From: a virus
Taxonomy: Duplodnaviria > Caudoviricetes
Strand: one strand, 5' to 3'
Length of the DNA: 64,000 nt
IMG/VR virus record: IMGVR_UViG_2929707518_000001
Coordinates: 6,335-70,334 of that record
The notes beneath the pieces were generated by a model. It did no database searches. It worked only from the letters and a program-made list of their open reading frames with translations, and was not told the DNA's origin. Each line of letters starts with the position of its first letter. Position 1 is the stretch's first letter. This document shows positions 3,102 through 22,068 of the stretch, in pieces. Made by a program: the position numbers and the translations under genes.

Positions 3102-6100
3102 TCAGTAGGCGAATGCGTTGGCGTCGAATGCCGAGGACGCATCCCAGGTGGTTGGGTCCGTGGTCCCCGCAGGCAGTACCTCGTTGATGAGGTCTCCGGC
3201 CGTGTGGGCCTTCGTTGTGGCTGCGGTGAGGGTGATCGTGGCGCTCGTCCAGCCCGGGGATGTCGAGCCGACCGCGAGGATGGTCACCGTCTCCTGGTTG
3301 GCCGTGTTCTGGCCGAGGACGATCTGGGTGCCTGCGGAGAGCTGGGTGGCCAGCGGGTTCGTATTGTCCTGGCTGGCGTTGATCGTGATCGAGGTGGCGC
3401 CGCTACTCACCGTCGTCTTCAGCGTGGTGTGCCAGGCAGCGAAAATCCCGTAAGGGGTGGTGTCCACGGGTGAGCACTGGAGCGTGACGTAGGCCTGACC
3501 TCGGTCGTCCATGTCCCATTTGATCGACTCGACGAACACGTCGGCCTGGATGGCCGGCAGGTTCGGCGGGCGCCTCATGACGCGGACCCGGGCCCCGAAC
3601 TCGAGTCCGAGCACCACCGGCCACAGCGATGGCTGTGCTGACGGGTGCAGCTTGAGCGAGGAGACTCGCGTGACCGGCTGCTTGTACCTGGACAGGAGAT
3701 AGCCGGCGGCGTCCTGGCATTCGCCGGTGGACTGGGTGTTGATGCTGCGGTTCAAGGGGCGGGGCATGTAGGCGGTGATCGACGCGGTGTCCCGCGCGGA
3801 GAACGTCTGCCCGGTTGACGTCTGGGTGACGGTCACGGTGTTGGAGAGGCGGGTCGGGTCGTAGTCGAGTTTGCACTCCTCATACGGGTATTCGCCCAGG
3901 TCGGCACGCTCACCGAACACGTACACGGGTGCGCCGGCGTTGTAGCGGGCAGCCCGGGACTTGAATGTGATGGTGCCGTCCCGGGCGGTGAAGTGCGAGC
4001 CGCCCTCGGTGTCGACGACCGCCTGGAGGGCGGACAGGCAGTCCTGGCCGCCGAAACTCGCGGCTCCCATTGCCGTGGTCAGGCCGCTTTGGATTGAGGT
4101 GGGGCCTGTCCATCCGGCGTACCCGAGGATGCGGGTGTATCGGGCGCTGGTGGAGTCTCCCGTGAACGAGTTCTTCCACGCGTTGTACAGGCTGGTGATC
4201 ATGACTCCGGCAGGGATCCAGTCCATTTCTGCCGCGAAAGCCAAATCGCCCTTGAAGTTGGTGGTGGTTCCATCTCCGACAGTCGCATCGACGAATCCAC
4301 CGACGTTGTCACTGATTAGCCCAGTTGGCGTGAATCCAGTTGGAACGCCGCTCCAGTAGGAAAGGGCTGCTCCATCTTGAGAGAAGAAGAGCTGCTGCAG
4401 GGCCTGGTTGTATCCGAAGGCGAGCAGATGCCAGTTCCCGTCCAGGCAGCTCGTCCCGCCCCCAGCTTGATACGTAAACCCTGCTCCGCTCGGTCCGGAC
4501 AAGGAGAAATTGGGCTGGCCTGTCGGATCAAGATAGATGTAAATGCCGGATCCGGAAGGGCCAGTTGTGCGCTGTTTATCCATGCAGGACCAAAGCATTG
4601 CAAGGGAGGTAGGCGTGGGTCCTGTGTAGCGGAAGGCGATGAGCCGAGACCATGAAGCGGGATCGGCTGGGCCGGTAATCCCCGAGGTGCCCAGCTTGAG
4701 GAAGGTTGCCGGCACGACGTAGGCCGCCCCAGGGCTCGGATTGTCGACCGTGGCCACGGTGCCCGAGCTCCCGGTGAATGCCCCGCCAGGCATGCTAGTT
4801 GCGGTGATCTGGGAACCGAACACAAACGAGCCCGGGCCATACTTGGAGGCTGAGAGTTCGGCCGGAGGGAAGTTGCCGGTGGAGTCACTGGCACTTGTCG
4901 ACCCCTGCGGATCGTCGAGCTTGAAGAGAAACCGGGGGTTGTGCGAGTTGATTTCCTGCGTGAGCGGGTCAGAGAGCGTGACCTGCGAGAACAGGGCGAA
5001 CGGGTCCACGCACGTCGGGTTGACGGTGCCGTAGACGCCTTCCTTCCAGTCCGAGGGCCAGCGCTCCACGTACCCCGAGTACATGGGGTACCACACGCCC
5101 GGCATCACCCACGGCGTGGCCGCCGACCCCTTCTCCAGCTGCCAGCCATCGACCTGGATGGAGCAGGTGGCGCCTGCAGTGGCCGCCACCATGATCCCCG
5201 CGTCCATCCCGGCCGCGTTCGCCGGCGCGGTCGCGGTAACCGTGAACGTTGTCCAGCTGGCCGAGGCGGCCCCCGTCAGTGTGACCGCCGAGCTATACGT
5301 GAAATTCGCAGCGGTACCGCCGACTGCCGCGTCGTACCAGCCGATTCCCGCCTTCACCTGCAATGTCGTGGCGGCGGTGACGTTACGGACACGGATTTGC
5401 ATGGTGTACGTCTGGCCCGGTGTCGCCGCGGTCTGGAGCATGTGGCAGATCCGTGTGGGAGCCGTCGTAGCCGACGGCACGGACACCTGGATCACCGTCG
5501 CACCCATCCAGGCAGTCGTGCTCGGCGTGACAGCGTTAGGGGCGCCCGGCGCCGTATCACTGTAGACCCCCGCAGGGGTAAGGGCGCTGCCGGCGGCGTA
5601 TCCGCCCAGGTCCGCGCCGCTCGCCATGAGCTGCGACAAAAGGTTCACCGTGGGCGGCCACTGCGCGCGCTTGCGGTACGGCTGGTAGGGCGCGATGCGC
5701 CCGGCGAACGGACTCGAGCCGTTCGTAGGGTCGAGGACGCCATCCGTGTTGGCCAGGGTCGTATTCAGCTCGCCAGATCGGACCTGGTCCAGCTCGTACT
5801 GGCGGCCCCGCTGGATCCCTACGCTGCCGCGAGTCCGCAGCGTGATATCCACGTACCGGTCTGCGGGTGCGTCGCTGCTCGCGTTCCAGTACGGGCCCCA
5901 CGCGTCCTCGATCAGCGGCCAATTCGGATTGACAGTGCCGCCCAGCGGGGTGTTGATGTGCCCGATCGAGGCAGTCAGGCCCGCCACTTCGGTGGCGCCC
6001 GCCGAGGTCTCGAACGCGAACCTGAGGCCGGTGGCCGAGGCCGCCCACGAGTAGCCGGAGCCGGCCAGCGTGGTCCAGGTGATGCCGTCGGTGGAGACAT

Positions 6101-6521
6101 CCGCATACCAGGTCGCGGACGCCTCCCGGAGGCGCCACCAGCGGTGCGTGTGCGGCTGGTAGGAGCCCAGCAGCGTCGTGGCTGTACTGCCCGCGGTCTG
6201 CAGGGTGAGCATGAGGATGCCGCTGTCGACGCGCACGGCAACGGAGTTGCTGGCGTCGACGCGCAGGACGAGGCTGGTCTTCGTGTACCCGTTGCCGTTG
6301 GGTGCCGCGGTGACGAGGGCGTAGACGCTGCTCGAGGTGGCGTCGTACAGGTTCGTGGAACCGAAGCTGTTGGTGGCTCCGCTGGTGGTGGGCTGGGCGA
6401 GAGTAACCAGGTCGGCGGTCGTGTCGAGAGTGGCCGTCCCCGTGATCGAGTTCCAGAGGGCCGTGTTGAGAGTCGCCGCCGTGAAGGGTTCGATGAGCGT
6501 GGACAGTTTGGGGTTGGGCAC
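3102..6521 (-). CDS. Large minor tail protein with carbohydrate-binding/LamG-like domains
   Basis: 1139 aa directly after the tape measure; IQRGRQYELD, VDGWQLEKG and DGNWHLL motifs. Confidence 0.8.
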   Translation of the reverse strand: MPNPKLSTLIEPFTAATLNTALWNSITGTATLDTTADLVTLAQPTTSGATNSFGSTNLYDATSSSVYALVTAAPNGNGYTKTSLVLRVDASNSVAVRVDSGILMLTLQTAGSTATTLLGSYQPHTHRWWRLREASATWYADVSTDGITWTTLAGSGYSWAASATGLRFAFETSAGATEVAGLTASIGHINTPLGGTVNPNWPLIEDAWGPYWNASSDAPADRYVDITLRTRGSVGIQRGRQYELDQVRSGELNTTLANTDGVLDPTNGSSPFAGRIAPYQPYRKRAQWPPTVNLLSQLMASGADLGGYAAGSALTPAGVYSDTAPGAPNAVTPSTTAWMGATVIQVSVPSATTAPTRICHMLQTAATPGQTYTMQIRVRNVTAATTLQVKAGIGWYDAAVGGTAANFTYSSAVTLTGAASASWTTFTVTATAPANAAGMDAGIMVAATAGATCSIQVDGWQLEKGSAATPWVMPGVWYPMYSGYVERWPSDWKEGVYGTVNPTCVDPFALFSQVTLSDPLTQEINSHNPRFLFKLDDPQGSTSASDSTGNFPPAELSASKYGPGSFVFGSQITATSMPGGAFTGSSGTVATVDNPSPGAAYVVPATFLKLGTSGITGPADPASWSRLIAFRYTGPTPTSLAMLWSCMDKQRTTGPSGSGIYIYLDPTGQPNFSLSGPSGAGFTYQAGGGTSCLDGNWHLLAFGYNQALQQLFFSQDGAALSYWSGVPTGFTPTGLISDNVGGFVDATVGDGTTTNFKGDLAFAAEMDWIPAGVMITSLYNAWKNSFTGDSTSARYTRILGYAGWTGPTSIQSGLTTAMGAASFGGQDCLSALQAVVDTEGGSHFTARDGTITFKSRAARYNAGAPVYVFGERADLGEYPYEECKLDYDPTRLSNTVTVTQTSTGQTFSARDTASITAYMPRPLNRSINTQSTGECQDAAGYLLSRYKQPVTRVSSLKLHPSAQPSLWPVVLGLEFGARVRVMRRPPNLPAIQADVFVESIKWDMDDRGQAYVTLQCSPVDTTPYGIFAAWHTTLKTTVSSGATSITINASQDNTNPLATQLSAGTQIVLGQNTANQETVTILAVGSTSPGWTSATITLTAATTKAHTAGDLINEVLPAGTTDPTTWDASSAFDANAFAY

Positions 6522-6565: not shown

Positions 6566-9292
6566 TTAGCTGCGCTGGTAGCCGGCGTAGGTCGTCGGGG
6601 TGCGCATGCCTCGACGCAGGAAGGCTTCTTCGATCTCGCGTGCGATGCCGTCGATCGTGGCGACGCTCCCCTGCACAGTGATGTTGATGTTCGTGACATT
6701 GGCGCCCGCACCCCCGCCCCCGGCGAGCGCCCTGCCGCCGGCGAGCCCGAGGGAGGGAACGCCGACCGTCTGGCTGGCCAGCAGGCCAGCCATGGACTGC
6801 ACGGAGGAGACTGCGGCCCCGGCATGGGCGTCGATTCCCTGCGCCACGCCCTGGGCGATCGGGGCGCCGACCAGCTCGGCGAATACCCGTGACGGTGAAT
6901 GAATGCCGAGGAAGTCTTTCGCGCTGGACAGGGCCGAGTTGGCCAGGCTGCGGAGTGAGCTGTACAGGGCGCTGGCCCCGCTACGGACGCCCTGGACGAT
7001 GCCGTCGACGATGGCCCTTCCGACCGACTGGAACCAGGAACCAACGTCCCTGACAGAGTTCCAGGCGGATCGGAGGCCGTTGCGGATGTATTCGCCGGCT
7101 TTGAGAATGTAGTGATTGATCGATGAGACTGCCGAGGAAATCGGCGTGATCATGGATGTCCTGATGCCATCCCAGATCGACGCTGCGGAACTTTTGATGC
7201 CAGACCACTTGCTTGCCAGCCACGAGGACGCGGCATTCCAGGTGGATTTCAGTCCGCTCCAGACCGCCGTGATGGGGTTGATGATCGCAGCCTTGATGCC
7301 GTCCCAGACCACACCCGCGACGGCTTTCAGGCCCGCCCACACCATGGAGAAGAATGCGGAGATCTTCCCCCAGACGTACCGGGCCGCAGCGAACATCGCC
7401 TCGTGGAAGTGGTTCCAGATCGCCATCACGACAGCGATCGGCGTAGCAAAGATCACCAGCAGTAGCGGCCACCACTTGCGAAAGAAGGCAGTGATCCCAT
7501 CCCAGATGGCCGCCGTGGTCCGCGACAACCAGTTCCAACCCATGACGATCGGGTCGACCAGCCGATGCCATCCAGCGACAAAGAACCCGACGAGCCAGTT
7601 CCAGGCGCCAGAAATGATGCCTGTAACGTGGTTCCAGATCGCTTGATTCTTGCTCGCGAAATCATGCCAACGTCCGACTATGAAGTCGGCAGCTGTCTTC
7701 GCGATGGACTGGATGAACCCCCATATTTGACGCCAATGGGTGTACAGATAGACGAGCTCGACAACCAGCACCACGATCGCGAGAACAATCCAGGTGACCG
7801 GGTTAACCGCTGCAGCTGCCGCCATCGCATACAGCGAGGCTATGAACGCCCCCATTGCGAAGACGAGGACGCCACCCACAACAATCGCCAAAGCGGCGGC
7901 AGCAGCCCGGTGCTGCTCGAAGAAGGTGATGACTTTCAGGATGGGCGGGATCAATTTCGTGCCCACCACGATCGCCGTCGTGGTCACCGCTTCCTTCAGG
8001 CGGCCCATCTGGACGTTGAAGGACTGCTGGGTGAGCGCCCAACCCTCAACGTCTTTCGAGGCATTGTTGAAGGAGTGGCCGACCTTCTCGACGCGCTCTT
8101 TGAAACCCTCGGTGTTCTCGCCGGTCAACTGCAGTGTCGTATTGAGGCCGATTGCGCCACCGGTCATCTTCTTGATGGCCTCGGTGTACGTCTGAGCTGC
8201 CGGCCCGCCCTTTTTCAGCTCGGCCGAGAAGCCATTCGCTTTGTTCTGGAGGGTGGCGTACTGCGTCAGCAGATTGGCTTGCTCCGGTGGAAGGCCCTTG
8301 AGCTCTTTGCGCCACTCGGCCAGCGAGATCGATCCCGAGCTGTAAGAGCGGGCCAGCTCCTGGATGCCTGCCGGCATCGCCTTGATCATTGTCTGGGCGT
8401 TCTCGGCAGCCTGTTTCGTCTGATTGAACGACGACAGCAGCAGAGTTCCCGACGGCCCCATCTTGGACAGGACCGTCTGCGACAGCAGGTCGAGAGTGCC
8501 GGTCAGGCCGCGCTGACCGAGCTTGGTCGCCACGTCCGTCGAAGAGAGGCCCAGGCGCTGCATCTCCTGAACCGCGACGTTGTTTGGGGCGGCCAGGTTG
8601 CGGATGGTGGAGGCGAGTTCCTGGGTTGCCTCCCGGGCCGATGTGCCGTGCTGGGTCAGGGTGGCGATTGCGCCGCCGACCTCGGCGAAGCTGACTTTAT
8701 TGGCGGAGGCGATCGGGATGACCGTGGCGAGCGATGCAGAAAACTCTTGCATCGTCATCTTGCCCTCGCCGGCCGCAGTCTTGAGGGCATTCATGACACG
8801 CACTGAGTCCTGCGCGCCAAGGTGATATGACGCCATGACGCTGGTCATGGCGTTGGTGACATCCTTGAGGTCGGCGCCTTCCTCGCGGGCACCCTGTGCT
8901 GCGGCCTTCAGGACTTTCAGGCCGTCCCCGGCCCGGTATCCGGCCTTCTCGACCTGGTACATACCCTCGGCGAGCTGCCCAGTGGACGTACCGGTATTGC
9001 GGGCCAGCGACATGACTCCGTCGGAGACCAGCTTCAGCTTCGACTGAGACTCACCGCAGGCCGTGACCAGCAGATTCATCTGCTGCTGGAAATCGCCGGC
9101 CGCCTTCACGCCGTACACGGCGAATGCCGCGCCAGCCATGATGGTGGCCCCGCCCACCTTCGTGAGCAGCCCCTGCACGCCGCCCATACGGGTCATGAAC
9201 GACTCGCCGCCGTGACTGGCAGCCGCCATACCTGACGTGAATTGCGAAGTCTCCGCCCGAAGACGGACAAAAAGATCCGCAACTTCCGGCAC
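6566..9292 (-). CDS. Tail tape measure protein (TP901-like)
   Basis: About 908 aa, Ala/Gly rich, Trp-periodic repeats, IHSPSRVF motif. Confidence 0.92.
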   Translation of the reverse strand: MPEVADLFVRLRAETSQFTSGMAAASHGGESFMTRMGGVQGLLTKVGGATIMAGAAFAVYGVKAAGDFQQQMNLLVTACGESQSKLKLVSDGVMSLARNTGTSTGQLAEGMYQVEKAGYRAGDGLKVLKAAAQGAREEGADLKDVTNAMTSVMASYHLGAQDSVRVMNALKTAAGEGKMTMQEFSASLATVIPIASANKVSFAEVGGAIATLTQHGTSAREATQELASTIRNLAAPNNVAVQEMQRLGLSSTDVATKLGQRGLTGTLDLLSQTVLSKMGPSGTLLLSSFNQTKQAAENAQTMIKAMPAGIQELARSYSSGSISLAEWRKELKGLPPEQANLLTQYATLQNKANGFSAELKKGGPAAQTYTEAIKKMTGGAIGLNTTLQLTGENTEGFKERVEKVGHSFNNASKDVEGWALTQQSFNVQMGRLKEAVTTTAIVVGTKLIPPILKVITFFEQHRAAAAALAIVVGGVLVFAMGAFIASLYAMAAAAAVNPVTWIVLAIVVLVVELVYLYTHWRQIWGFIQSIAKTAADFIVGRWHDFASKNQAIWNHVTGIISGAWNWLVGFFVAGWHRLVDPIVMGWNWLSRTTAAIWDGITAFFRKWWPLLLVIFATPIAVVMAIWNHFHEAMFAAARYVWGKISAFFSMVWAGLKAVAGVVWDGIKAAIINPITAVWSGLKSTWNAASSWLASKWSGIKSSAASIWDGIRTSMITPISSAVSSINHYILKAGEYIRNGLRSAWNSVRDVGSWFQSVGRAIVDGIVQGVRSGASALYSSLRSLANSALSSAKDFLGIHSPSRVFAELVGAPIAQGVAQGIDAHAGAAVSSVQSMAGLLASQTVGVPSLGLAGGRALAGGGGAGANVTNINITVQGSVATIDGIAREIEEAFLRRGMRTPTTYAGYQRS

Positions 9293-9333
9293 GCCGCCCA
9301 CCGCCTTCCGTGGTCAGCGCGAAAGCGGTGGGG

Positions 9334-9789
9334 TCAGAAAATTCGGGGCCAGCCGGCCCGGTAGATGGTCACGTACAGCTGCGGCGCGACCGTGGTGATC
9401 CCGAATCGGTAGGCAGGATGCAGGAACGGATACGCGCTGCCGTTGCGGAGACCCGTCTCGAGGGCCAGGCCGTATCTGCTGGACGGCGTCCTGCCATATG
9501 GCGGGGTCATGCCTGCCGCAGTGCCGACTTTGGTCTCCCAGCCCGTTCCTGACGGGGCGACCGGAGTGTGCGTGATGGAACGGCGGAGCGTCCCCGAGAT
9601 GACTGCAGGTCCGGTGCCGGGAGACGCCGGCGTCGGTGTGCCACGCCGGTGCGCGCCGGTCGAGGCGTTCACCTTGGCCTGCCGCTCGATCGAGTTCGCA
9701 AGCTGCGTCAGGAAGGCCTTCGATTTCAGCTGCCCGTCGGCGGTTATCTCGGTGAACAGGCGGGTGAATACGCCCGGCCGGAGCTCCAT
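9334..9789 (-). CDS. HK97 gp10-like neck/tail completion protein
   Basis: SGTLRRSI, YGLALETG and YPFLHPA motifs; ATG at 9789 has a GGGGAGG RBS. Confidence 0.7.
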   Translation of the reverse strand: MELRPGVFTRLFTEITADGQLKSKAFLTQLANSIERQAKVNASTGAHRRGTPTPASPGTGPAVISGTLRRSITHTPVAPSGTGWETKVGTAAGMTPPYGRTPSSRYGLALETGLRNGSAYPFLHPAYRFGITTVAPQLYVTIYRAGWPRIF

Positions 9790-9790
9790 C

Positions 9791-10054
9791 TCAGCCTCCC
9801 CGGGCACGCTCGGCGCGGGCTTCGGCGCGCTCATTCTCTTGCCGCTCGTGCTCCCCGATCATGCCGAGGATGTCGAGGCAGTAGCGGCGCACGTACATGG
9901 GTGTCGCCTGGAGCTCCTCCCATGACCAGTGCATGCGCCGCATGAGGAGGAAGTCGGCCCATTCGGCTGGGGAGTCATCAGAGCCCCACGTCCCCTCGAT
10001 GATCGATTCGATCGGGAGGAGTACGTCCTCGTAGTACGGGGAGCCGGGGCCTAG
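9791..10054 (-). CDS. Tail assembly chaperone C-terminal extension (-1 frame, G-T-like)
   Basis: Open -1 frame LGPGSPYYEDVLLP...MHWSWEELQATPMYVRRY...ARGG with no RBS/start at its 5' end. Confidence 0.7.
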   Translation of the reverse strand, partial: LGPGSPYYEDVLLPIESIIEGTWGSDDSPAEWADFLLMRRMHWSWEELQATPMYVRRYCLDILGMIGEHERQENERAEARAERARGG

Positions 10055-10458
10055 TGAGGGTCCGCAACGCTGGTGATCTCCTCCGCCACCCGGTTGATGA
10101 TCTTCAGCGGCATCCGGGCGATGTTCTCGATGGTGATCGGCCCGAGCCGCGGTTGGGGAGTCTGGGCATCCCCGAGCGACTCGAAGAGGGCGACCGGGTC
10201 GACGTCATCGCCCAGCTCAAGCAACGGCGCCTGAGAGGCGTCGTAGACCTTCCAGGCGACGATGACGCGGGCGAAGACCTCGTACATCGCCTCCTGGGCC
10301 TGCTGCGGGTCGAGAGGCTGGCCGCGGTCGTCGAGCGGGACGTCCTTGGGTGTGACCTCCTTCGGGGGCAGCAGCTGCGGGTTGCGCATGAGGACGGACA
10401 CGTCGTCCCCGAGCTCCGGGAAGGTCAGTAGGACGTAGGGATTGCTGTAGCCAGCCAT
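10051..10458 (-). CDS. Tail assembly chaperone
   Basis: Directly after the major tail gene; MAGYSNPYV start with GGAG RBS. Confidence 0.75.
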   Translation of the reverse strand: MAGYSNPYVLLTFPELGDDVSVLMRNPQLLPPKEVTPKDVPLDDRGQPLDPQQAQEAMYEVFARVIVAWKVYDASQAPLLELGDDVDPVALFESLGDAQTPQPRLGPITIENIARMPLKIINRVAEEITSVADPH

Positions 10459-10545
10459 GAGGTTCTCCAGGATTGAGGGCGTCGAGGGCGTCAGACCCTG
10501 GCCGTGCCGTGACGCCCTCACATGCGGCACGGCCAGGGAGTTCGG

Positions 10546-12477: not shown

Positions 12478-13146
12478 TCACGTCCGCTGATAGGTGCAAA
12501 GGATCGCCTCGGCCTGAGCGGAAAGGACACCGCGGTCGTGCCCGAACTGCGTCCCAGTCGGGTCGATCTCGCCGAGGGCAAGACTCGCCGCCAGCAATTT
12601 GCAGGCCCGGCCCAGGTCTGCCGGGGTGGTGACGTACCCGCCGTCGTAGACAACTCGGATCATCGATCCGACCGGCAGGAATGTGCCGAGACTGAACCAG
12701 ACGTGCCCCGAGTCGTTCTCGGCGCCGATCAACGACGCTGCCGCCGCAGTCTGCGAGCCTCCGTAGGACCGCAGCAGCGTCACCTGCAGATTCGAGTACT
12801 CCCACATCTCCGGGTAGCGCGCGGCGAATTCGTTCAGCCACAGGTGCCGGACATGGTCTCCGCCACCCAGGGCGTTGGAGTACGAGCGGCCGATCGTGCC
12901 CTGCAGGTCCATCGGCATGGAGCCGGTGCCCGAGAGCTCATCGGGGTCGATACCCGTCGCCCGGTGCGACTCCGGGACCCCGGTGAACGGGGCGAGCCGG
13001 CGGCCCGCGATGCCCTCACACTGCCGGGTTGCCTCGATCATCAACTGGGAGAGGGCATCGGCCGAGTAGTCGCGGACCAGGTCAGCGAACTGCCCGGCCG
13101 CCATGTCCGCCGCGCTGGCGAGCGGGGTCGGGGAGTCCGCGGCCAT
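12478..13146 (-). CDS. Head-to-tail adaptor
   Basis: EATRQCEGIAGRR and YDGGYVTTPADL motifs; position. Confidence 0.7.
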   Translation of the reverse strand: MAADSPTPLASAADMAAGQFADLVRDYSADALSQLMIEATRQCEGIAGRRLAPFTGVPESHRATGIDPDELSGTGSMPMDLQGTIGRSYSNALGGGDHVRHLWLNEFAARYPEMWEYSNLQVTLLRSYGGSQTAAAASLIGAENDSGHVWFSLGTFLPVGSMIRVVYDGGYVTTPADLGRACKLLAASLALGEIDPTGTQFGHDRGVLSAQAEAILCTYQRT

Positions 13147-13499: not shown

Positions 13500-14870
13500 T
13501 CAGCTGGACAGGGTGGTCGTCACACGGGCCAGACGACCTGTGAACTTCGGCGCCCGCACAGCGAGGGTCGTGTCGGAGCAGATAGCGAAGGGCAGCGTGT
13601 CCGGGCTGGCCGTCGTCGGAAAGACATCGAGCGGCTGGATTTCTCGAACGTAGGGCCGCACGATGTTGTTCTGGTCGCGGGAGATCAGGTAGATGTTCTC
13701 CTGGCCCGTGGTCGGCGGCTTCAGGGAAGCGTTGGTGCCGACGTAGGTCGCCGGGCCCGCAGCGGGAACGGTGGAGCCGTTCTTCGGGGTGAGCTTGGCG
13801 CCGTCGTCCACGATGGACGTGGTGAGGATCGGCGTGACGCCGTCCGCGGCGATGCCGACCGTCGCGTCCACGTAGCCGAGGAGCGTCTCCGTGCCGGTCG
13901 CGGTGCTGCGGTACACCTTGTACACGTTGGGCTGGGAGCCGTCGAGGCCGGCCGGGGTGGAGAAGGACAGCGTCACGGTGGACGTCGCGCCGGTGGTGGC
14001 CTGCGACACCTCGACCGAGGGCAGGATCTCGCCCTGGCGGGCGATGACCGGGGCGATCTGGTAGTAGTACGTCGCCGCGGCGAGCGTGCCGCCCGTGGTC
14101 GCGGTCGCGGTGGTGACCGTGCCCATGCTGAACGCGCGGGCCGACAGGAACGACGACTTCATGATCGGGATGCCTCGGTACGACGGCACGTTCAGACCGG
14201 CCGCGATGTCGAGCCGGTCGAGGAACCGCTGCTGGTTGATGACCAGCTGGGCGACCTTGGACGCGGCGGTCGGCGACATGACCAGCATCCACGACGGGTC
14301 GTAGATGCTCATGGCGGCCTGCTGCTCCACCATGTCGATGAGCTTGTCTAGGGCGCCGAGCGACAGGGATGCGTTGAAGTCGAGGCTGTTCTGCGAGCTG
14401 CCCGAGAAGGTGGAGACGAGGCTGTCGAGGCCGTCGAACTGCGGGTAGCCGCCGAGGGCGGTGGAGGCCGAGTTGCCCCAGCAGATGGCGTTCTCCATGT
14501 CCCAGTACAGGCCCTGGATGGAGCCCTCGATCTCCTGGGCGCGCAGGTCGCCGACGAGCTGCCGGGTCACGGCCTGGCTGTAGCCGGTGACCGCGCCGAC
14601 CGCCTGCAGGTTGCGGATGGTGAACGAGTTCTGCACGTAGGTGCTGTTGGTGACGGGGCGGGCGCCGCCGTCGGAGACGAAGCCGCCCGCGGCGCGCGCG
14701 GTCCGCTGGTTGAAGTAGTACGTCGTCGAGTCCCACTTGCGGGACGGGATCGCGCGCACCAGCGGCGAGTACCGGCGCTGGTACTCCAGCAGCATCGGGT
14801 CGATGATCGTGTTGATGAGCGGAGCAGCACCGGCAGCGGTGAGAGCTTCGCGCAGTTCGTTCTGGGGCAT
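13500..14870 (-). CDS. Major capsid protein with an inserted beta-rich domain
   Basis: 456 aa after the protease/scaffold; QFDGL and MENAICWG motifs. Confidence 0.82.
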   Translation of the reverse strand: MPQNELREALTAAGAAPLINTIIDPMLLEYQRRYSPLVRAIPSRKWDSTTYYFNQRTARAAGGFVSDGGARPVTNSTYVQNSFTIRNLQAVGAVTGYSQAVTRQLVGDLRAQEIEGSIQGLYWDMENAICWGNSASTALGGYPQFDGLDSLVSTFSGSSQNSLDFNASLSLGALDKLIDMVEQQAAMSIYDPSWMLVMSPTAASKVAQLVINQQRFLDRLDIAAGLNVPSYRGIPIMKSSFLSARAFSMGTVTTATATTGGTLAAATYYYQIAPVIARQGEILPSVEVSQATTGATSTVTLSFSTPAGLDGSQPNVYKVYRSTATGTETLLGYVDATVGIAADGVTPILTTSIVDDGAKLTPKNGSTVPAAGPATYVGTNASLKPPTTGQENIYLISRDQNNIVRPYVREIQPLDVFPTTASPDTLPFAICSDTTLAVRAPKFTGRLARVTTTLSS

Positions 14871-15001: not shown

Positions 15002-16609
15002 TCACTCGGGGGCGTTGCCGCGGGCGCCGAGGACAGCACCGACGGTGGTGGGCGCCACGAACTGCGCCCACTCCTCCGGGGTGAACTCGTGGAGCGGCTT
15101 CGCCGGCCAGCCCTCGGGCAGGCCGGCGCTCCCGCCGGTCGCCGCCGACTCGGTGACCGGCGCGACGAAGCCCTTGCGGGACGGGCCGCCGGTGGCTTCG
15201 ACGTGTTCCTGTACGGCCTGCGGCAGGGCGGCCTTGATGCCCTCGGAGACCAGGCGCTGGATGCGCTGCTCGTCGGTCTCCGTCACGGCGGGCGCCGCGG
15301 GCGCGGCTTCCGCGACCGCTTCGGCCGGGGCCGACTCGACGGCTGCCGGCTGAGGGGCGACCCTCGTGAGGAGGGCCTGGAACTGCTCGTCGGTGAGGGT
15401 GATCCCGCCGGTGGCGGGCACGGCAGCCACCTCGGCGGCCGGGGTGATGGACTCCGCCATGGCGGTCTCCTGTTCCTGGGTGGTTTCGGCCGCCTGGGAT
15501 TCCAGGGCCGGGGTTTCGGGGGCGGTCTCCGTGGCGCCGTCGTCCTCAAGGTCCGCGCCGGCAGCCGCCGGAGGGTCGATGTCGGCGTCCATGTCCGGGT
15601 CGATCGCCGCGATGGCCTGGCAGGCGCCGGCCATCGCGGCACGGCCGACCGCGTCGAGGTCGTGCGGGTCGACGCAGTACGAGGTGACCGTGACGGTGGT
15701 CGGGCCGTTGGTGAGGCTGATCGACATGGAGCCGCCGTGCCCGGGGTCGTCGGAGTAGCCGAGGCACTCGGCGACTTCCTCGGACAGGCGGCCGATCGGG
15801 TCGATCAGCCATCCCTCCTGGGTGGCGACTTCGACGCCGTGGCCGCGCAGCGCCTTGGCGACCCGCTGTCGGATCCGCTTGAGCTGCGCGGCCGTGTAGC
15901 CGCGGGCGATCTCCGACTCGTGCACGCGGGCCCAGGCCGTCTTGGCCCTGGCTTTGGTGTCGAGGGGGTATCGCTTGGCCTTGTCGGCCTGGTATCCGGG
16001 GTCGGCGTAGGTGCCCGCCGACTCGACGGCCGCCGGTTCGACGGCTGTTTCGCTGACGGTGTGCACCAGTGCCTCCTGTACAGATTCGGTGATGAGCACC
16101 CGGCCATCGGGCGCAGACTCCGCCGGACCGGAGCCGGCGGGCGTGTAGGTGTCGACACGTGCCCCGAGGACGCCCGGCTTCCTGGTGAAATCAAGTCCAT
16201 CGAGCTCAAGGTCGTTCGCCGTCTCCCGAGGCTGGCCGTCAGGGCCGACCTCCCGCCGAACTTTGCCGACCCAAGCGCCGCGGATGGATACGCCGCGCAG
16301 GAACGGAGGTCCGTCGGTGGTGTCGACAAGCGCAGCGATCGTGCGACCGGGCCCGGTGTCAGCGATGGCCGCGGTGTAACGGGCCGCACCGGTGTCGTCC
16401 TGCTCAATCGCGGTGATCCGGCCGACGATCTGGGTGCTGTCGTCCTCGGCGCTGTGGTGCGTCAACATCGTCAACGGCTGCATGCCGTCAGCAATGCGTT
16501 CCTGTGCACGAGCGACGGCCTTCCCGATCGCCTCAGCCGTGTAGAGGCGTCCGTTACGGCTGACGCCGGGCACGAGCGCGATGCCGCTGATGGTCCCGAT
16601 GGAAGCCAC
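15002..16609 (-). CDS. Capsid maturation protease / scaffold fusion
   Basis: SRNGRLY, GVSIRG and LDFTRKPGV protease motifs; acidic Ala/Pro scaffold C-terminus. Confidence 0.8.
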   Translation of the reverse strand: MASIGTISGIALVPGVSRNGRLYTAEAIGKAVARAQERIADGMQPLTMLTHHSAEDDSTQIVGRITAIEQDDTGAARYTAAIADTGPGRTIAALVDTTDGPPFLRGVSIRGAWVGKVRREVGPDGQPRETANDLELDGLDFTRKPGVLGARVDTYTPAGSGPAESAPDGRVLITESVQEALVHTVSETAVEPAAVESAGTYADPGYQADKAKRYPLDTKARAKTAWARVHESEIARGYTAAQLKRIRQRVAKALRGHGVEVATQEGWLIDPIGRLSEEVAECLGYSDDPGHGGSMSISLTNGPTTVTVTSYCVDPHDLDAVGRAAMAGACQAIAAIDPDMDADIDPPAAAGADLEDDGATETAPETPALESQAAETTQEQETAMAESITPAAEVAAVPATGGITLTDEQFQALLTRVAPQPAAVESAPAEAVAEAAPAAPAVTETDEQRIQRLVSEGIKAALPQAVQEHVEATGGPSRKGFVAPVTESAATGGSAGLPEGWPAKPLHEFTPEEWAQFVAPTTVGAVLGARGNAPE

Positions 16610-17021: not shown

Positions 17022-18479
17022 TCAGGCAAACCAGCTGGCGAAGTGGGCGAGCGAGACGTCTGCGGCGTAGCAGCAGCGGCATGACGGGTGGAGCGGCATG
17101 CGTGGCTGGTCGCCGATATGCCACGGGCTGCCGGCCTCGGCGTCGATGCAAGAGGAGCAGACCCTGCCGTCTCCAGCGGTGATGATGTCGATCTGAAGGA
17201 CACCCTCGGAGCGGTACAGGGCGAGGGCGCCTTCGTCGGCCGCGGTGGTCATTGCCCAGTCGACGGTGAAGGCCACGGCGCCTTCGTCGGCGGTGAGGAT
17301 GTCCATGGCCGCGTCGATCATCTCGTCGCGGGTCAGGCCGGCTTCCATGCCGTCGGCGAGGGCACTGCCCAGGTCGCCGGCGGCACCGTCTAGGGTGCGG
17401 GCCAGCCAGCCGTCCGCGTCGGCCCACAGCTCGTCGAGGCGTTCCATGGACCGGTAGGCGTCCTTGAAGGCGATGTTCCAGTCGAGGCCGACCTGAGCTC
17501 CGCGTTCGGCCGCGATGGCGACCGCGTTGACCACGCCCTCAGCGCGGCCTGCGGCGATGGCGTCCCGCAGAGCTTGCCGGAGCTTGCCGAAGCCGGTGAC
17601 GTCGATAAGCGCGTACAGCATCTTCTTGGCTGCAGCGACCGCCTCGGCGCGGACCCTCGACCAGTCCGGGCCTCGCGCCTCCGCAAGACCCATCTGGGCC
17701 CTGAACCCGTCGACCGCCGTGGTGACCGCCTGCCGGTCGATGAGCGGCTCCCAGGCGGCACCGACGAGCTTGGTGTGCTTGACCTGCTGCTCTTCGCGAC
17801 GCTGGAAGAGCAGCGCCCACATCCCTTCGAGCCGGCCAAGGTCGATCGTGGCGCGGAGGATGTCCGGGTCGTCGGTCGCTTCGGTCGCAATCTGCATCGC
17901 GGTCCCGCAGGCAACCCGCACGCGCTCAGTCATCGGGCCGCCAGACATGGCCCAGCCGGCAGCGAACGCCTCCCGGGCGACGTCCGCGATGGGGTGCGAC
18001 AGCTCGGCATCGGTGCGGTCGGTGCCGTGGACGGCAGCTAGCGCCGTGAACTCGGCATCCCGGGCCGCGAGCCGGTCGAGGGGCGCCGGCTCGTCGGGGT
18101 CGAGGTAGGTCAGGGAGCAGTGCGCGGTGTAGCCGTGCTCCCGCGGGACTGGGATGCCGTGCTCGCGTAGGGCGTCGAGGGTGTCGCGGCGCAGGCTTTC
18201 GAGGTCAGGCGAGTCGATGAGCGCGACGAGGACGTCCTTGTCGCCACCGGTGAAACGACCGAGGCCTGCGACCTTGGCGGTGAACGGGCGCCGCTCCGCC
18301 AGCTCGGCGACGACCTGGCGGAGTTCGTCGCCGTCGATGTCGTCGGCCTTGCCCAGGTAGGCGACTGTCACGTGGAGCTCGCTGGGGGGCAGGCCACCGT
18401 CGACGGCGAGTTCCTCTGCGAGCTCGGCCGGCGGGTAGAGGGCGATCATGCAGCCGTCGGAGTAGTCCGGGGATCCCAC
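17022..18479 (-). CDS. 2H-phosphoesterase (2'-5' RNA ligase-like) fused to a MuF-like head morphogenesis domain
   Basis: LHVTV and AHCSL HxT/S motifs; C-terminal DGRVCSSC...PLHPSCRC. Confidence 0.8.
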   Translation of the reverse strand: MGSPDYSDGCMIALYPPAELAEELAVDGGLPPSELHVTVAYLGKADDIDGDELRQVVAELAERRPFTAKVAGLGRFTGGDKDVLVALIDSPDLESLRRDTLDALREHGIPVPREHGYTAHCSLTYLDPDEPAPLDRLAARDAEFTALAAVHGTDRTDAELSHPIADVAREAFAAGWAMSGGPMTERVRVACGTAMQIATEATDDPDILRATIDLGRLEGMWALLFQRREEQQVKHTKLVGAAWEPLIDRQAVTTAVDGFRAQMGLAEARGPDWSRVRAEAVAAAKKMLYALIDVTGFGKLRQALRDAIAAGRAEGVVNAVAIAAERGAQVGLDWNIAFKDAYRSMERLDELWADADGWLARTLDGAAGDLGSALADGMEAGLTRDEMIDAAMDILTADEGAVAFTVDWAMTTAADEGALALYRSEGVLQIDIITAGDGRVCSSCIDAEAGSPWHIGDQPRMPLHPSCRCCYAADVSLAHFASWFA

Positions 18480-18495
18480 GCGCACCCCCTGCCGG

Positions 18496-18603
18496 TCAGC
18501 CGACCCGCTTCTTGACCAGCGCTGTGACGTCCTTGGCCCTGAGCGGATGCCCCGGCGGGTCGGGCTGTTGGATGACGGGCCCCGGGTCAGGCGGCGCGCT
18601 CAT
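18496..18603 (-). CDS. 35-aa hypothetical peptide
   Basis: MSAPPDPGPV...KKRVG; overlaps the portal stop and fills the gap. Confidence 0.35.
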   Translation of the reverse strand: MSAPPDPGPVIQQPDPPGHPLRAKDVTALVKKRVG

Positions 18604-20092
18604 CGACGCCCCCGGGTAGCTCAGCGAGGGCTTCCCGCAGTCGCCGCTGATATCGCTGCTTGAGGGTCTCCGTCGGCGGGGGTGGCGCCGGTGCGCCGGG
18701 GGCCTCGGGAAGGTCGGACAGTTCGACTGGCTTGTCGGGCTGCGCGACTGCCATGGCGAGCGTGGTGCCCCTGAGCCGGTTGGCGACGCCGGCCTGCGAC
18801 ATGGCGTCCATGTCGTCCCACTGCACGAAGTTCGTGCGGTCGACGAGTAGAGCCCTGTCTCCGCCTTCGATCGCCGGCTCGCCGATGTCGGCCCGGTACC
18901 GATTGAGGGTCCATGCGCCGCTGCGGAGCCGCATGTCGCGGATCTCCTCGACAACCTTGGAATCCCGCAGGTCAATTTCGGCGAGCTTCAGGCGCCAGCC
19001 CTCTACTCCGAAGCCGACTCTCGCCAGATGGTAGGTGAAGGCTTCGACGACGAGTTCGGCGAGAGGCTGGCAGGTGTTGACCTCGAAGGTGCGGTCTTGG
19101 CTCTCGCCCGTTCCGCCGCCGAGGTTCCCGGACTCGATGATGCCGACCTTGGCGGGCGGCACCCCGTAGGCGGCGATGATCTCGTCGCGTCGCTGGTCCA
19201 GGAACCGGAGGTAGTCGATGGTCCGGGACTGGGCAAGCTCCTGAACCTGGGCCCCGCCCTTGGTGCTGATCGGCGTCCCGATGTTGCGGGGGCCCACGTT
19301 CCGCTGCTGATACTGGGCGTTCCAGCGGTTGATCTCCGCTGGCGAGGCGCTCGCCGGGAAGTCCACGTGGATCTGCGGCGGAGCGCCCTTGCGGAAGATT
19401 TCCTTGCTGGTAGCCGAGGCGAAGAGCCAGCTGGTGATCGGCAGCATGGCCGCCTGAGTCGGCGACACCCCGAACAGGCCCGACCGGGGGGCGTCGAGGC
19501 TGATGTGGATGACCTCGCGCGGCTCGAACGTCGCCCGCTGCCCCAGCTCGGTCACCTGCGCGTAGCCGGTGACCGTACCGTGCTCGTCGGCGATCGGCAG
19601 CATGCTGGGGCAGTCCAGCGAGTACAGGGCGACCGGCTGATTCGCCAGCCACACCACCTCGACGAAAGCGTCTCCGAAGACGAGCAGGTCGGTGATGATG
19701 CCGCGGAGGATTTGCCGGATGTTCTCCCGCGGGTTGCAGTAGGCGATCATGCGTTCCAGGAGCAGCACCTCAGCCGGCTTGTCCGGCTGTTCTTCCCCGC
19801 CGGAACCGTCGCCGGGGTCCCAGTCCATGACCAGGCCGCCGGCCGTGACCGTGCGGGCGATGGCGTTGACGGATGCCCAGGCCCACGGGCAGGCCATGTA
19901 GGCGTCGTACAGCTGAGTCAGGTTGCTGCGCCGGTCAGTCCCGGTGGCTCCGCCGATGCTCTGGCGGGTTTCCGTGAGTCCGCCGGGTCCGATGCCGTAC
20001 TCGTAGCCGGCCCGCTCGGGAAGCTTCGCCGGGGCGGTCTCCAGGACCTCCGCCTGCCCCGTCACCCCCTGCCACCAGGACTTGAGGCTCAT
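18587..20092 (-). CDS. Portal protein (HK97-like)
   Basis: DLLVFGDAF, EVIHI, IAAYGVPPAKVG and TLNRYR motifs. Confidence 0.92.
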   Translation of the reverse strand: MSLKSWWQGVTGQAEVLETAPAKLPERAGYEYGIGPGGLTETRQSIGGATGTDRRSNLTQLYDAYMACPWAWASVNAIARTVTAGGLVMDWDPGDGSGGEEQPDKPAEVLLLERMIAYCNPRENIRQILRGIITDLLVFGDAFVEVVWLANQPVALYSLDCPSMLPIADEHGTVTGYAQVTELGQRATFEPREVIHISLDAPRSGLFGVSPTQAAMLPITSWLFASATSKEIFRKGAPPQIHVDFPASASPAEINRWNAQYQQRNVGPRNIGTPISTKGGAQVQELAQSRTIDYLRFLDQRRDEIIAAYGVPPAKVGIIESGNLGGGTGESQDRTFEVNTCQPLAELVVEAFTYHLARVGFGVEGWRLKLAEIDLRDSKVVEEIRDMRLRSGAWTLNRYRADIGEPAIEGGDRALLVDRTNFVQWDDMDAMSQAGVANRLRGTTLAMAVAQPDKPVELSDLPEAPGAPAPPPPTETLKQRYQRRLREALAELPGGVDERAA

Positions 20093-21450
20093 TCGAGTTG
20101 CACCGTCCCCCCGGGCCGTGGGCCGTCATCATCGTCGAGCCACCAGGCGGTGTCGTCTGTCGGTTCCGGGGCTCGGTAGCCGGCGCCCGGACCCAGCGGA
20201 GTGAGGAGCCCTTCAGGCTGGACCGGGGTAGGCGTGTCGAGGAGCAGGAACTCGGGGCCAGTGCCCAGGTTGGTGAGCAAGTACCTGAGGCTGTCGCAGC
20301 TGTGGTCGTCAGCCGTCGTGTCGGCGTCCTCCGGATCACCCTTAGTGGCGTGTGGTAGATCGGACAGTTCGCGGTACAGCTCGGTCACCGTGGAGAACAG
20401 GTGCAGGCCGGGGCAGGTCTCCCAACCCAGAGCTCGATGGTGGGGGCAAGCGGGCTTCTCGGCGAGGTAGCTGCGGACGCGCTGCCAGCCTGTGACGCGG
20501 GAGCCTGCGCCTTTGCCTGCCCTCTCCAGGTGGACACCTTCGTCGGCGTACACGTCGGCAATGGCCTTCGCGTCACCGCGGGTGGCCCACATGGCGTCGT
20601 CGGCGAACCGGACTGAAACGTGCTCGCCTGGGGCTTCAGCGGCGAGAATCTCTTTCGCTTGGTCGGCTTCGCCGACTCCTCGCCTGTAGATCTCCCGGTA
20701 GATCCAGACACGGCCGTCCTCGTCGACTGCGCCCCAGAGGACTGCCCAAGGGGCCGAGAAGCCCCAGTCCAGGCCGTTGTAGCGCTTCCATGACGATGGA
20801 AGTGTGATCGGGTCTACGACATGCCGTTCACGCTTCAGCTCAGGGAAGAGCATGCCGGCGAACACATCCCAGTCTCCATCCAGGTATGCGGCACGAAGTT
20901 TCTCGGGTAGGGCCTGGAGGGATTGCGCGTATTCGGGGTTGACGTGCGGGTTGTCGGATAGCTTCGACGGGATGAAGCGGACCGGGCGGCCGTGCTCGCC
21001 GGTGACGACCGTTTCGCCGTAGTTCGTCGGCTGGATGTACCGAGTCTTGACTGCGCCGTGTCCGGGGCCGCCAGGGTTGGTGGCGGACCGGATTCCGAGT
21101 ACGGGGATGTCGGAGCGGCCGGAGCGAAGCCGGGATTCCAGGAACGAGCAGACGTCTGGGGGGGTGAGCGTCCGCTCATCGAAGATCAGCATCTGATACT
21201 GGCCGCCTAGCCGCCTGGACGCATCCTTGATGGACTCGGCGTACCGAAACATCAACAGCGATCCGTTCGGGAAGCGCAGCTCGTACTCCGTGCCATTCCA
21301 CGAGGCGCCAAGCGCGCCGGCGTATTCCGCCTGCGCGAGCTCCGCAAGCAATGACTCCTTCAGCTCGCCATAGGTGCGCCGGAATGCGCCGACCCGGATC
21401 CCCGGGTGCCGGACGCAGGTCCGTATTGCCTCCATGACGAGCGCGCGACT
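20089..21450 (-). CDS. Terminase large subunit, C-terminal part (reached by -1 frameshift, or frameshifted)
   Basis: IFDE Walker B, ATNPGG, DNPH, GLDWG and DHSCDSLRY motifs; lacks Walker A unless joined to the upstream ORF. Confidence 0.9.
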   Translation of the reverse strand, partial: SRALVMEAIRTCVRHPGIRVGAFRRTYGELKESLLAELAQAEYAGALGASWNGTEYELRFPNGSLLMFRYAESIKDASRRLGGQYQMLIFDERTLTPPDVCSFLESRLRSGRSDIPVLGIRSATNPGGPGHGAVKTRYIQPTNYGETVVTGEHGRPVRFIPSKLSDNPHVNPEYAQSLQALPEKLRAAYLDGDWDVFAGMLFPELKRERHVVDPITLPSSWKRYNGLDWGFSAPWAVLWGAVDEDGRVWIYREIYRRGVGEADQAKEILAAEAPGEHVSVRFADDAMWATRGDAKAIADVYADEGVHLERAGKGAGSRVTGWQRVRSYLAEKPACPHHRALGWETCPGLHLFSTVTELYRELSDLPHATKGDPEDADTTADDHSCDSLRYLLTNLGTGPEFLLLDTPTPVQPEGLLTPLGPGAGYRAPEPTDDTAWWLDDDDGPRPGGTVQLE

Positions 21451-21710
21451 TTTCCCCCGCCGGCCGCTCCGCCGTACAGCAAGTCGTACTCGGTGGCGTC
21501 GTGGAACTCCTGCTGCTTGGCGGTGGGAATGTACCCGAGCAGGCCGAAGACGTCGATCTTCCGCAGCCGCTCGGATTCCCGCCGCTGCGCTTCAGCCTGC
21601 AGGGCCTTCAGCTGGCGGAGCTTGTCCAGCTTCGCGCGGAGTAGCGGGGATTCCGAGTGCTCCGGCTCCGAGTTCGGCTTCGAGGCGCTGGATTTGGGCG
21701 TCGAGGGCAT
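21360..21710 (-). CDS. Terminase large subunit, N-terminal part up to Walker A
   Basis: PTAKQQEFH...LYGGAAGGGK; G GGA AAA at 21456-21450. Confidence 0.8.
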   Translation of the reverse strand: MPSTPKSSASKPNSEPEHSESPLLRAKLDKLRQLKALQAEAQRRESERLRKIDVFGLLGYIPTAKQQEFHDATEYDLLYGGAAGGGKVARSSWRQYGPASGTRGSGSAHSGAPMAS

Positions 21711-22068
21711 CGATCGTCAGCACCTCCAATTTGATGGCGCTGTCGAGGCCGAGGAGCTTGGCCCGGCGGTCGAGGATCTTGAGGGCGGCTTCGATGGCCC
21801 GGGGGTTGCCCTCCATCGCTTCCGGCCAGATCGCCTGCTGGAGGGAGTCGATGCGGGCGAGTTCGAGTTCCCGCCACGCCTCGATGGCCAGTCCCTCCTC
21901 GATGACGTGCTTCTCGAGGGCGCGCCGAATGTCGGCGCAGGCGGCGTTGCGGCCGGAGTAGCCGAGGGCCGCGGCGATTTCCGTGTAGGTGGCCCCTTCG
22001 ATTTTCATGCGGATGGCCTTGCCGCGGCGTTCGGCGGTGGAGGCCTGCTGTGCTTTTGATGCGACCAT
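21592..22068 (-). CDS. Terminase small subunit (HTH)
   Basis: ATYTEIAAALGY HTH; LDRRAKLLGLD motif; position. Confidence 0.8.
   Translation of the reverse strand: MVASKAQQASTAERRGKAIRMKIEGATYTEIAAALGYSGRNAACADIRRALEKHVIEEGLAIEAWRELELARIDSLQQAIWPEAMEGNPRAIEAALKILDRRAKLLGLDSAIKLEVLTIDALDAQIQRLEAELGAGALGIPATPREAGQAPPAEGPAG

Follow-up and report, generated by a model that had tools for sequence, protein, structure and literature searches.

The 64,000-nucleotide stretch analyzed here (hereafter the window) covers positions 6,335 to 70,334 of IMG/VR record IMGVR_UViG_2929707518_000001, a 70,334-base Streptomyces provirus record with an estimated completeness of 79%, and its minus strand carries a gene for the terminase large subunit (TerL) whose reading frame is broken inside the Walker A motif (P-loop). 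The minus strand at the break reads GGC GGA GCG GCC GGC GGG GGA AAA GTC. Frame 0 opens with ATG at 21710, contains EYDLLYGGAAGGGKVARSSW and stops at 21360 after 116 aa; the 87 residues preceding the site end in ...YGGAAGGGK (EYDLLYGGAAGGGK), and the 29 residues that follow are unrelated. The -1 frame is open from 21456 to 20089 (455 codons counted from GGG) and begins GKSRALVMEAIR, with GGG AAA AGT providing the GKS of GKSRALV.... Upon joining the two frames at the heptamer G GGA AAA (21456-21450), 87 and 453 residues add up to a TerL of 540 aa. By standard decoding, neither open reading frame (ORF) holds a complete Walker A motif (G-x4-GK[ST]), with frame 0 reading GGGKV and the -1 ORF being without the glycines; the full motif is obtained only via -1 trans-frame reading. 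An original prediction made from the letters of this DNA had placed the split of TerL at Walker A, with frame 0 ending as GGAAGGGK-V at the 21360 stop, a -1 shift on G GGA AAA restoring GKS in a protein of about 540 aa, and a GGAG 10 nt upstream, and all of these elements were confirmed when the letters were read again (Table 1).

The heptamer lies in X XXY YYZ register with the incoming frame, GGA and AAA being frame-0 codons. The window has a single copy of the 10-mer GGGGGAAAAG vs. 0.05 expected from 100 shuffles, and the codons used at the site are minority codons within the TerL gene itself, as judged by GGG (5 of 50 Gly), GGA (6 of 50 Gly), AAA (4 of 19 Lys) and AGY (5 of 33 Ser). The assignment to TerL is based on: 1) a match of the -1 piece to Pfam Terminase_6N (PF03237) with an E-value of 1.7e-5 and 25.1 bits over a cut-off of 22; 2) tblastn with the -1 piece, which matched 750 phage records at ~35% identity, annotated among the matches listed as terminase large subunit; 3) the position of the gene in the head module, between a small-terminase-like ORF and the portal gene. 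Family searches of the window's record with PF03354 and PF03237 returned no match, but the PF03237 search also missed the TerL detected by hmmscan, so these searches are uninformative on a second terminase.

Table 1. Features of the broken TerL gene and its neighbours (positions are those of the window)
Feature	Position	Strand	Remarks
TerL N-terminal segment, frame 0	21450-21710	minus	ATG 21710 through Lys AAA 21452-21450, 87 aa; aligns with the N-termini of continuous homologues
GGAG, Shine-Dalgarno-like tetramer, possible upstream stimulator	21467-21470	minus	10 nt between GGAG and the heptamer, on its 5' side
Slippery heptamer G GGA AAA, proposed -1 tandem-slippage site	21450-21456	minus	X XXY YYZ register
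Frame-0 tail past the site (VARSSW...PMAS)	21360-21449	minus	unshifted reading, 29 codons + stop
TerL remainder, frame -1	20089-21450	minus	Ser AGT 21450-21448 to stop 20089; rest of ATPase domain and nuclease domain; base 21450 read twice
Small-terminase-like gene (helix-turn-helix, HTH)	21592-22068	minus	weak Pfam HTH_23/HTH_28 below cut-off; phrog_645, E 2e-31; assigned by position directly upstream of TerL
Portal gene	18587-20092	minus	Pfam Phage_portal, E 3.7e-30; overlaps the TerL stop by 4 nt
487-aa protein with RNA-ligase-like N-terminus	17022-18485	minus	directly after portal; PHROG 'RNA ligase' families, E 1.4e-15, residues 7-128
Head maturation protease-like	15002-16609		PHROG match, long uninterrupted ORF
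Major head protein	13500-14870		PHROG match, long uninterrupted ORF
Head-tail adaptor	12478-13146		PHROG match, long uninterrupted ORF
Tail assembly chaperone pair	9334-10530	minus	first ORF 10051-10530, stop 10051-10053
Tape measure protein	6566-9301		PHROG match, long uninterrupted ORF
Large tail-region protein	3102-6521		PHROG match, long uninterrupted ORF

A search for homologous loci returned 60 viral and 6 genome loci (2 of the latter duplicating viral ones), among which 60 cover the Walker A site. In this close family, 55 loci are continuous through GGGK[ST], 3 carry an intein exactly at K|S/T (L005, L024, L053) and 2 show the same -1 break on GGGGGAAAAG (L002, L022); no frame break was found in the 60 loci other than at the heptamer. 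When the joined product was aligned to the 55 continuous homologues, GGGK-SRALV matched column for column, with no residue missing or added. The two loci sharing the break have 88% (L002, the nearest relative) and 67% (L022) protein identity to the TerL of the window, and all three proteins start with MPSTPK.... In addition, when the protein database was queried with the 116-aa product of frame 0, four short proteins were returned, including a truncated N-terminal piece from Streptomyces vinaceus (P0001), reading ...GGAAGGGKVARSSW...PMAS with an end of the GGGKVAR type and the same break, and another from an ENA contig fragment (P0002, ...GGAAGGGKVAR). The original prediction had asked whether close homologues are continuous single ORFs, which would have spoken against it, and whether an alignment of homologous terL genes would reveal a conserved break with the heptamer; most close homologues are indeed continuous, but L002 and the S. 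vinaceus protein share the break, and the alignment recovered break and heptamer together in L002 and L022. As a separate observation, a 103-aa entry of the protein database (P0004) is also a truncated TerL N-terminal piece, reading ...YGGAAGGGRGGRCPERT...; at the Lys position it differs from the family, and it may represent a different break at the same motif.

The recurrence of the break was explored in IMG/VR by exact-pattern scans that share the prefix GGNGGNNNNGCNGGN and vary only in the G and A runs. Including the window, 21 TerL genes carry a -1 break in Walker A on GGGGGAAAA followed by G or C. The pattern ending in GGGGGAAAAG (G5A4 + G) had 24 matches, comprising 12 broken TerL genes with GKS restored in the -1 frame, 8 Hint-like insertions that follow GGGK in frame and 4 unrelated sequences, and the pattern ending in GGGGGAAAAC (G5A4 + C) had 9, comprising 8 broken TerL genes restoring GKT (L200-L207) and 1 unrelated sequence. 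Runs that are one base longer were in frame: 86 matches for G5A5 + G (all GGGKS, median G+C content (GC) 0.38), 21 for G6A4 + G (of which 17, having 300 or more codons downstream, were retained as TerL) and 85 for the Thr type G5[G/A]A4 + C (73 kept). Insertion-type breaks requiring a +1 shift (G6A5 or G5A6 + G) had 0 matches in IMG/VR; the broken state thus occurs in one direction only. Among loci with a GC of at least 0.6, counting genes with at least 300 downstream codons, were 10 of 20 broken genes vs. 1 of 61 with G5A5 and 2 of 15 with G6A4. A metagenome scan gave at least 120 rows; among the matches listed, 102 were other or too short, 14 had frame 0 continuing and 4 were broken and TerL-like, one of them on the same contig as L205, leaving at least 3 further broken TerL-like genes. 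Most of the listed metagenome rows are chance matches in non-TerL DNA, and no prevalence figure can be derived from them.

On a FastTree phylogeny of 200 TerL C-terminal parts, the broken state requires at least 10 changes and forms 10 maximal all-broken groups; the IMG/VR breaks fall in about nine independent clades. The L200-L207 set is split only by one in-frame member (L247, G6A4) nested inside it, giving 8 broken vs. 1 in-frame gene. The site of L247 reads GGG GGG AAA ACG (around 9957-9982 of its IMG/VR locus), and its nesting suggests one-base toggling between in-frame and frameshift-dependent states. At this position, the non-slippery GGC GGY AAG TCN/ACG is found in the continuous genes closest to the window clade, to L074 and to the L069 clade; starting from ancestors of this type, several changes focused on the site were needed to reach GGG GGA AAA AGY minus one base.

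A sequencing or assembly error, in which the true DNA is one G or A longer and TerL is an ordinary continuous gene, has in its favor that under-calling of homopolymers is a known error type and that the record may derive from the sole run listed for this stretch, no RNA run being among those listed. That public run (X1), available in the form of contigs and possibly the sample from which the window stems, has a 26,800-base contig with a word depth of 200 that shows 0 differences and 0 gaps to the window over 21000-21900. Because this separate contig build gives the same letters without an indel, an artefact of the original assembler is excluded, while a systematic read error is not. Records of numerous distinct isolates and metagenomes show the same break, and broken genes outnumber the in-frame one within the L200 group; we therefore regard an error as highly improbable.

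We next consider what selection has made of the two frames. In all 20 traceable broken genes (of 21 with the window), the -1 frame is open over 375-540 codons, with the remaining one (L068) running off its contig. Substitution rates at synonymous sites (dS) and the ratio of nonsynonymous to synonymous rates (dN/dS) were computed by the Nei-Gojobori method for the part downstream of the break, within broken clades. Between the window and L090 (L002/L090), dS was 0.71 and dN/dS 0.11; among L069, L078, L085 and L089, dS was 0.15-0.30 and dN/dS 0.03-0.08; and among L200-L207, dS was 0.87-2.2 and dN/dS 0.04-0.16. The N-terminal parts, which are short and noisier, had dN/dS values mostly of 0.02-0.26. 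As judged by these ratios, both frames of the break-sharing genes are conserved amid heavy silent divergence, which is not expected of pseudogenes or errors. Within the L200 group, the eight codons past the site are nearly invariant even at silent positions, with variable flanks.

These data bear on the plainest alternative, namely that a 1-bp deletion has inactivated TerL in a decaying prophage and that the recurrence reflects a mutational hot spot in the G5-6/A4-5 runs. Compatible with such decay are the in-frame runs of one base more, the presence of L247 within a broken clade (both indicating that one-base changes do occur here), the incomplete state of the provirus record and the absence of the broken form from 401 sampled Streptomyces genomes. 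However, a pseudogene would be expected to gather further stops and indels and to drift toward a dN/dS of ~1, and we found instead that: 1) both frames are open in 20 of 20 traceable genes; 2) dN/dS is 0.03-0.16 at dS values of up to 2.2 in the break-sharing clades; 3) broken genes prevail by 8 to 1 in the L200 group; 4) insertion-type breaks are absent, and the 60-locus family is broken only at the heptamer. Neither relaxed selection nor extra disruptions were seen, and the neighboring structural ORFs are uninterrupted. We surmise that an inactivated TerL is improbable. The preference of the original prediction for a programmed -1 frameshift over a 1-bp deletion is supported by the recurrence of the break (2 of 60 close loci and 20 IMG/VR genes besides the window), the intact frames, the purifying selection and the identical second contig set.

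The frame-0 tail, on the other hand, is not conserved among the broken genes and varies in length from 3 to 116 codons, a finding that also bears on a split enzyme. According to this alternative, the two ORFs are translated separately, the second one from an ATG at 21435, 7 codons past the site, and an active terminase is formed from both products together. Apart from that suitably placed ATG, the arrangement fits poorly, since the P-loop would be cut between Lys and Ser with 29 out-of-frame residues left on the first piece, the tail in other lineages is of any length within the above range, many continuous homologues have no Met at the position of this ATG, and the G-rich stretch lies 17 nt from it, which is long for a ribosome-binding site. 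Accordingly, we give a split terminase hardly any credence.

We consider it likely, on the basis of the comparative sequence data, that the TerL of this Streptomyces provirus is made by an obligatory programmed -1 ribosomal frameshift. In the proposed sequence of events, translation would begin at ATG 21710 in frame 0, and at the heptamer the tRNA-Gly on GGA (P site) and the tRNA-Lys on AAA (A site) would slip back by one base, from G GGA AAA to GGG AAA, with the former re-pairing to GGG and the latter to AAA. The next codon would then be AGT (Ser), completing the Walker A sequence GGAAGGGKS, and reading would continue to 20089 to yield the 540-aa TerL, with non-slipping ribosomes yielding the 116-aa N-terminal fragment. 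The arrangement seems to arise and revert via a single base in the G run. As the break persists over long divergence, the amount of TerL obtained through the shift would have to suffice for a functional phage.

That the frame is restored by some means is supported by the conservation of both frames; which machinery performs the shift is a distinct question. RNA polymerase could slip in the G5/A4 run and add a G or A, such that part of the mRNA is in frame and is read normally by the ribosome. The break does lie within two adjacent homopolymer runs, and the comparative data speak to a restored frame rather than to the level at which it is restored. Known bacterial sites of transcriptional realignment consist of runs of ~6-9 or more A or T, in comparison with which runs of 4 and 5 are short, and the exact zero-frame X XXY YYZ register along with hairpins spaced by 5-6 nt in five lineages fits the ribosome better. 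Transcriptional slippage is thus an improbable source of the restored frame. From the register of the heptamer, the shortness of the homopolymers and, in some lineages, the spacing of the hairpins, we infer a shift by the ribosome and not by RNA polymerase.

Candidate stimulatory signals for ribosomal frameshifting were found on both sides of the heptamer. Downstream, five singleton lineages (L068, L070, L071, L072 and L081) have a predicted hairpin of 7-8 bp starting 5-6 nt past the heptamer, at -13 to -16.5 kcal/mol, which is absent in most of their nearest in-frame relatives, and the L069 clade has a long stem (z ~ -2.5 over 74 nt). For L074 and L080, downstream folding showed nothing beyond synonymous shuffles. 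Over 74 nt, the median z was -0.85 in broken genes vs. +0.73 in the close family, a modest shift. Upstream, GGAG is present in the corresponding zone of 16 of 21 broken genes vs. 9 of 49 close continuous homologues, and in 32 of 86, 12 of 21 and 31 of 85 genes in other in-frame sets; this zone encodes Gly-Gly. A stimulatory role for the upstream GGAG and the downstream hairpin is uncertain and at most suggested by these distributions.

Several observations weigh against programmed frameshifting. First, the window clade has no convincing downstream hairpin, with z-scores of the minimum free energy over 30 nt, relative to synonymous shuffles, of +0.5 in the window and +0.1 in L090. Second, among phylogenetically independent pairs (7 supported), neither GGAG (p ~0.22) nor the hairpin (p ~0.5) was significantly associated with the break. 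Third, G GGA AAA is identical in all 21 broken genes, but for 20 of them this is in part a consequence of the pattern searches, which required the heptamer. Fourth, the breaks are outnumbered in IMG/VR by the in-frame runs of one base more, which count 86 (G5A5-G), 21 (G6A4-G) and 85 (Thr type) and come mostly from low-GC phages, making the broken form a minority state. Fifth, besides being found in 0 of the 401 sampled genomes of the genus Streptomyces, the broken pattern is absent from 3 named genomes. Sixth, tblastn found no cultured phage closer than ~50% identity that could prove viability, the best identities to cultured phages being ~36% for the window, 41% for L202, 36% for L081 and 49% for L072; the frame-0 piece had no match to phage records. 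Lastly, the X1 run is possibly of the same source as the window, so its agreement remains compatible with a systematic read error.

TerL lies in a head and tail module, in which the ORFs of the portal, protease-like, major head, adaptor and tape measure proteins are long and uninterrupted (Table 1). The 3' end of the small-terminase-like gene and the start of TerL share 119 nt (21592-21710, minus strand). The frame of this small-terminase-like gene is the -1 frame of TerL, and its last ~35 residues look low-complexity; its true end may be earlier than the end of the ORF. The 487-aa protein with the RNA-ligase-like N-terminus, an odd fusion, occupies the usual place of the head-morphogenesis (MuF-like) protein. 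Upstream of the tape measure gene lies the tail assembly chaperone pair, the second part of which has its -1 frame open across the stop of the first ORF. We inspected this pair as an internal example of a slip site and found no in-register X XXY YYZ heptamer in it; its shift site is non-canonical or located elsewhere.

The closest parallels in recoding come from other genes. The frameshift of the tail assembly chaperone G/GT was reportedly studied by Levin (1993) and Xu (2004). In lambda-like phages, G/GT slips on G GGA AAG (PMC7911831). The TerL break resembles it in the -1 shift on a near-identical X XXY YYZ heptamer (G GGA AAN), in being in a late phage gene and in its conservation across divergent phages. 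In G/GT, the two products both have a use, and what the shift appends is a C-terminal domain close to the ORF end. The TerL shift falls instead within a catalytic motif, Walker A, after ~87 codons of an essential enzyme, and ATPase activity is possible for the shifted product alone. The orfA-orfB transposases of the insertion sequence (IS) families IS1 and IS3 are also made by -1 frameshifting, and the TerL proposed here would share with them an active full-length enzyme that exists only as the -1 product and at low dose, along with a short N-terminal protein as the unshifted product. They differ in belonging to another protein family, in that their site is usually A AAA AAG and has a defined structure downstream of it, and in the established regulatory role of their short product. 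By analogy with these transposases, a low, fixed dose of TerL set by the shift is plausible. A limit on active TerL through frameshifting, as put forward in the original prediction, and any importance of the short N-terminal product are inferred. In E. coli, the tau/gamma products of dnaX arise by a -1 frameshift with an upstream Shine-Dalgarno-like element. The dnaX heptamer ends in Lys codons and has this element ~10 nt upstream, as the window has its GGAG; in contrast, the shifted dnaX product is the truncated one and there is a strong 3' stem-loop, of which the window has no convincing counterpart.

Another parallel lies in the inteins that occur at the P-loop of TerL in actinobacteriophages. 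These interrupt the same codon boundary, GGGK|S/T, as the frame break, but they are in-frame protein insertions removed by splicing, whereas the window has no insertion and is offset by only one base. Within the loci collected here, the in-frame insertions of L005 (1801-3000), L024 (1561-3000) and L053 (around 3000) end in ...THN|T/S, with LAGLIDADG homing-endonuclease domains in the first two. The Hint-like insertions of L073, L075, L076, L077, L084, L087, L088 and L091 start right after GGGK and have no N-terminal Cys. Extra same-frame insertions of ~1-1.2 kb in the C-terminal part of TerL (L057:1192-3747 and L019:386-2698) could be additional inteins at other sites.

The nearest published case concerns Streptomyces phage Hau3 and the prophages StrepC.1 and S. 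catenulae, whose large terminase is a candidate for UUA-linked translational bypassing (PMC10732093; PMC5009743). There too, the large terminase of a Streptomyces phage is interrupted in frame and is considered to need recoding for the full-length enzyme. The interruptions differ in being 7-10-nt non-coding blocks after rare UUA codons, at other positions and in a different terminase, for which bypassing was proposed (PMC10732093). A UUA-linked bypass of the Hau3 type was considered for the window and rejected: 21400-21500 of the minus strand contains no TTA, and exactly one base is missing, at a classical -1 heptamer in the P-loop. In the literature searched, no -1 frameshift in the Walker A motif of TerL was described, with supplements being outside the scope of that search, e.g. 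Supplementary Data 9 of PMC10732093 (100 ter genes), which might hold cases.

We also entertain, as a tentative and rather doubtful extension, that the -1 frameshift in the P-loop is not a tolerated lesion but a recurrently selected device that may throttle the packaging ATPase to a low, fixed dose and may also change the DNA at GGGK|S/T, where inteins with homing endonucleases insert in this family, thereby protecting the gene from homing, with lineages toggling between G6 in-frame and G5 frameshift-dependent states. The coincidence with the intein insertion point provides a testable link between homing elements and recoding. In addition, the broken genes make up a compact natural collection in which G GGA AAA occurs both with a 3' hairpin and without one, in hosts of high and mid GC. 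Gene callers and phage-completeness tools will score a TerL of this kind as broken and the phages as defective, though they are probably functional. If confirmed, this would be an essential phage enzyme made only via a -1 frameshift in its catalytic motif, an arrangement that would have evolved about nine separate times; and if true, recoding would set the enzyme dose in DNA packaging.

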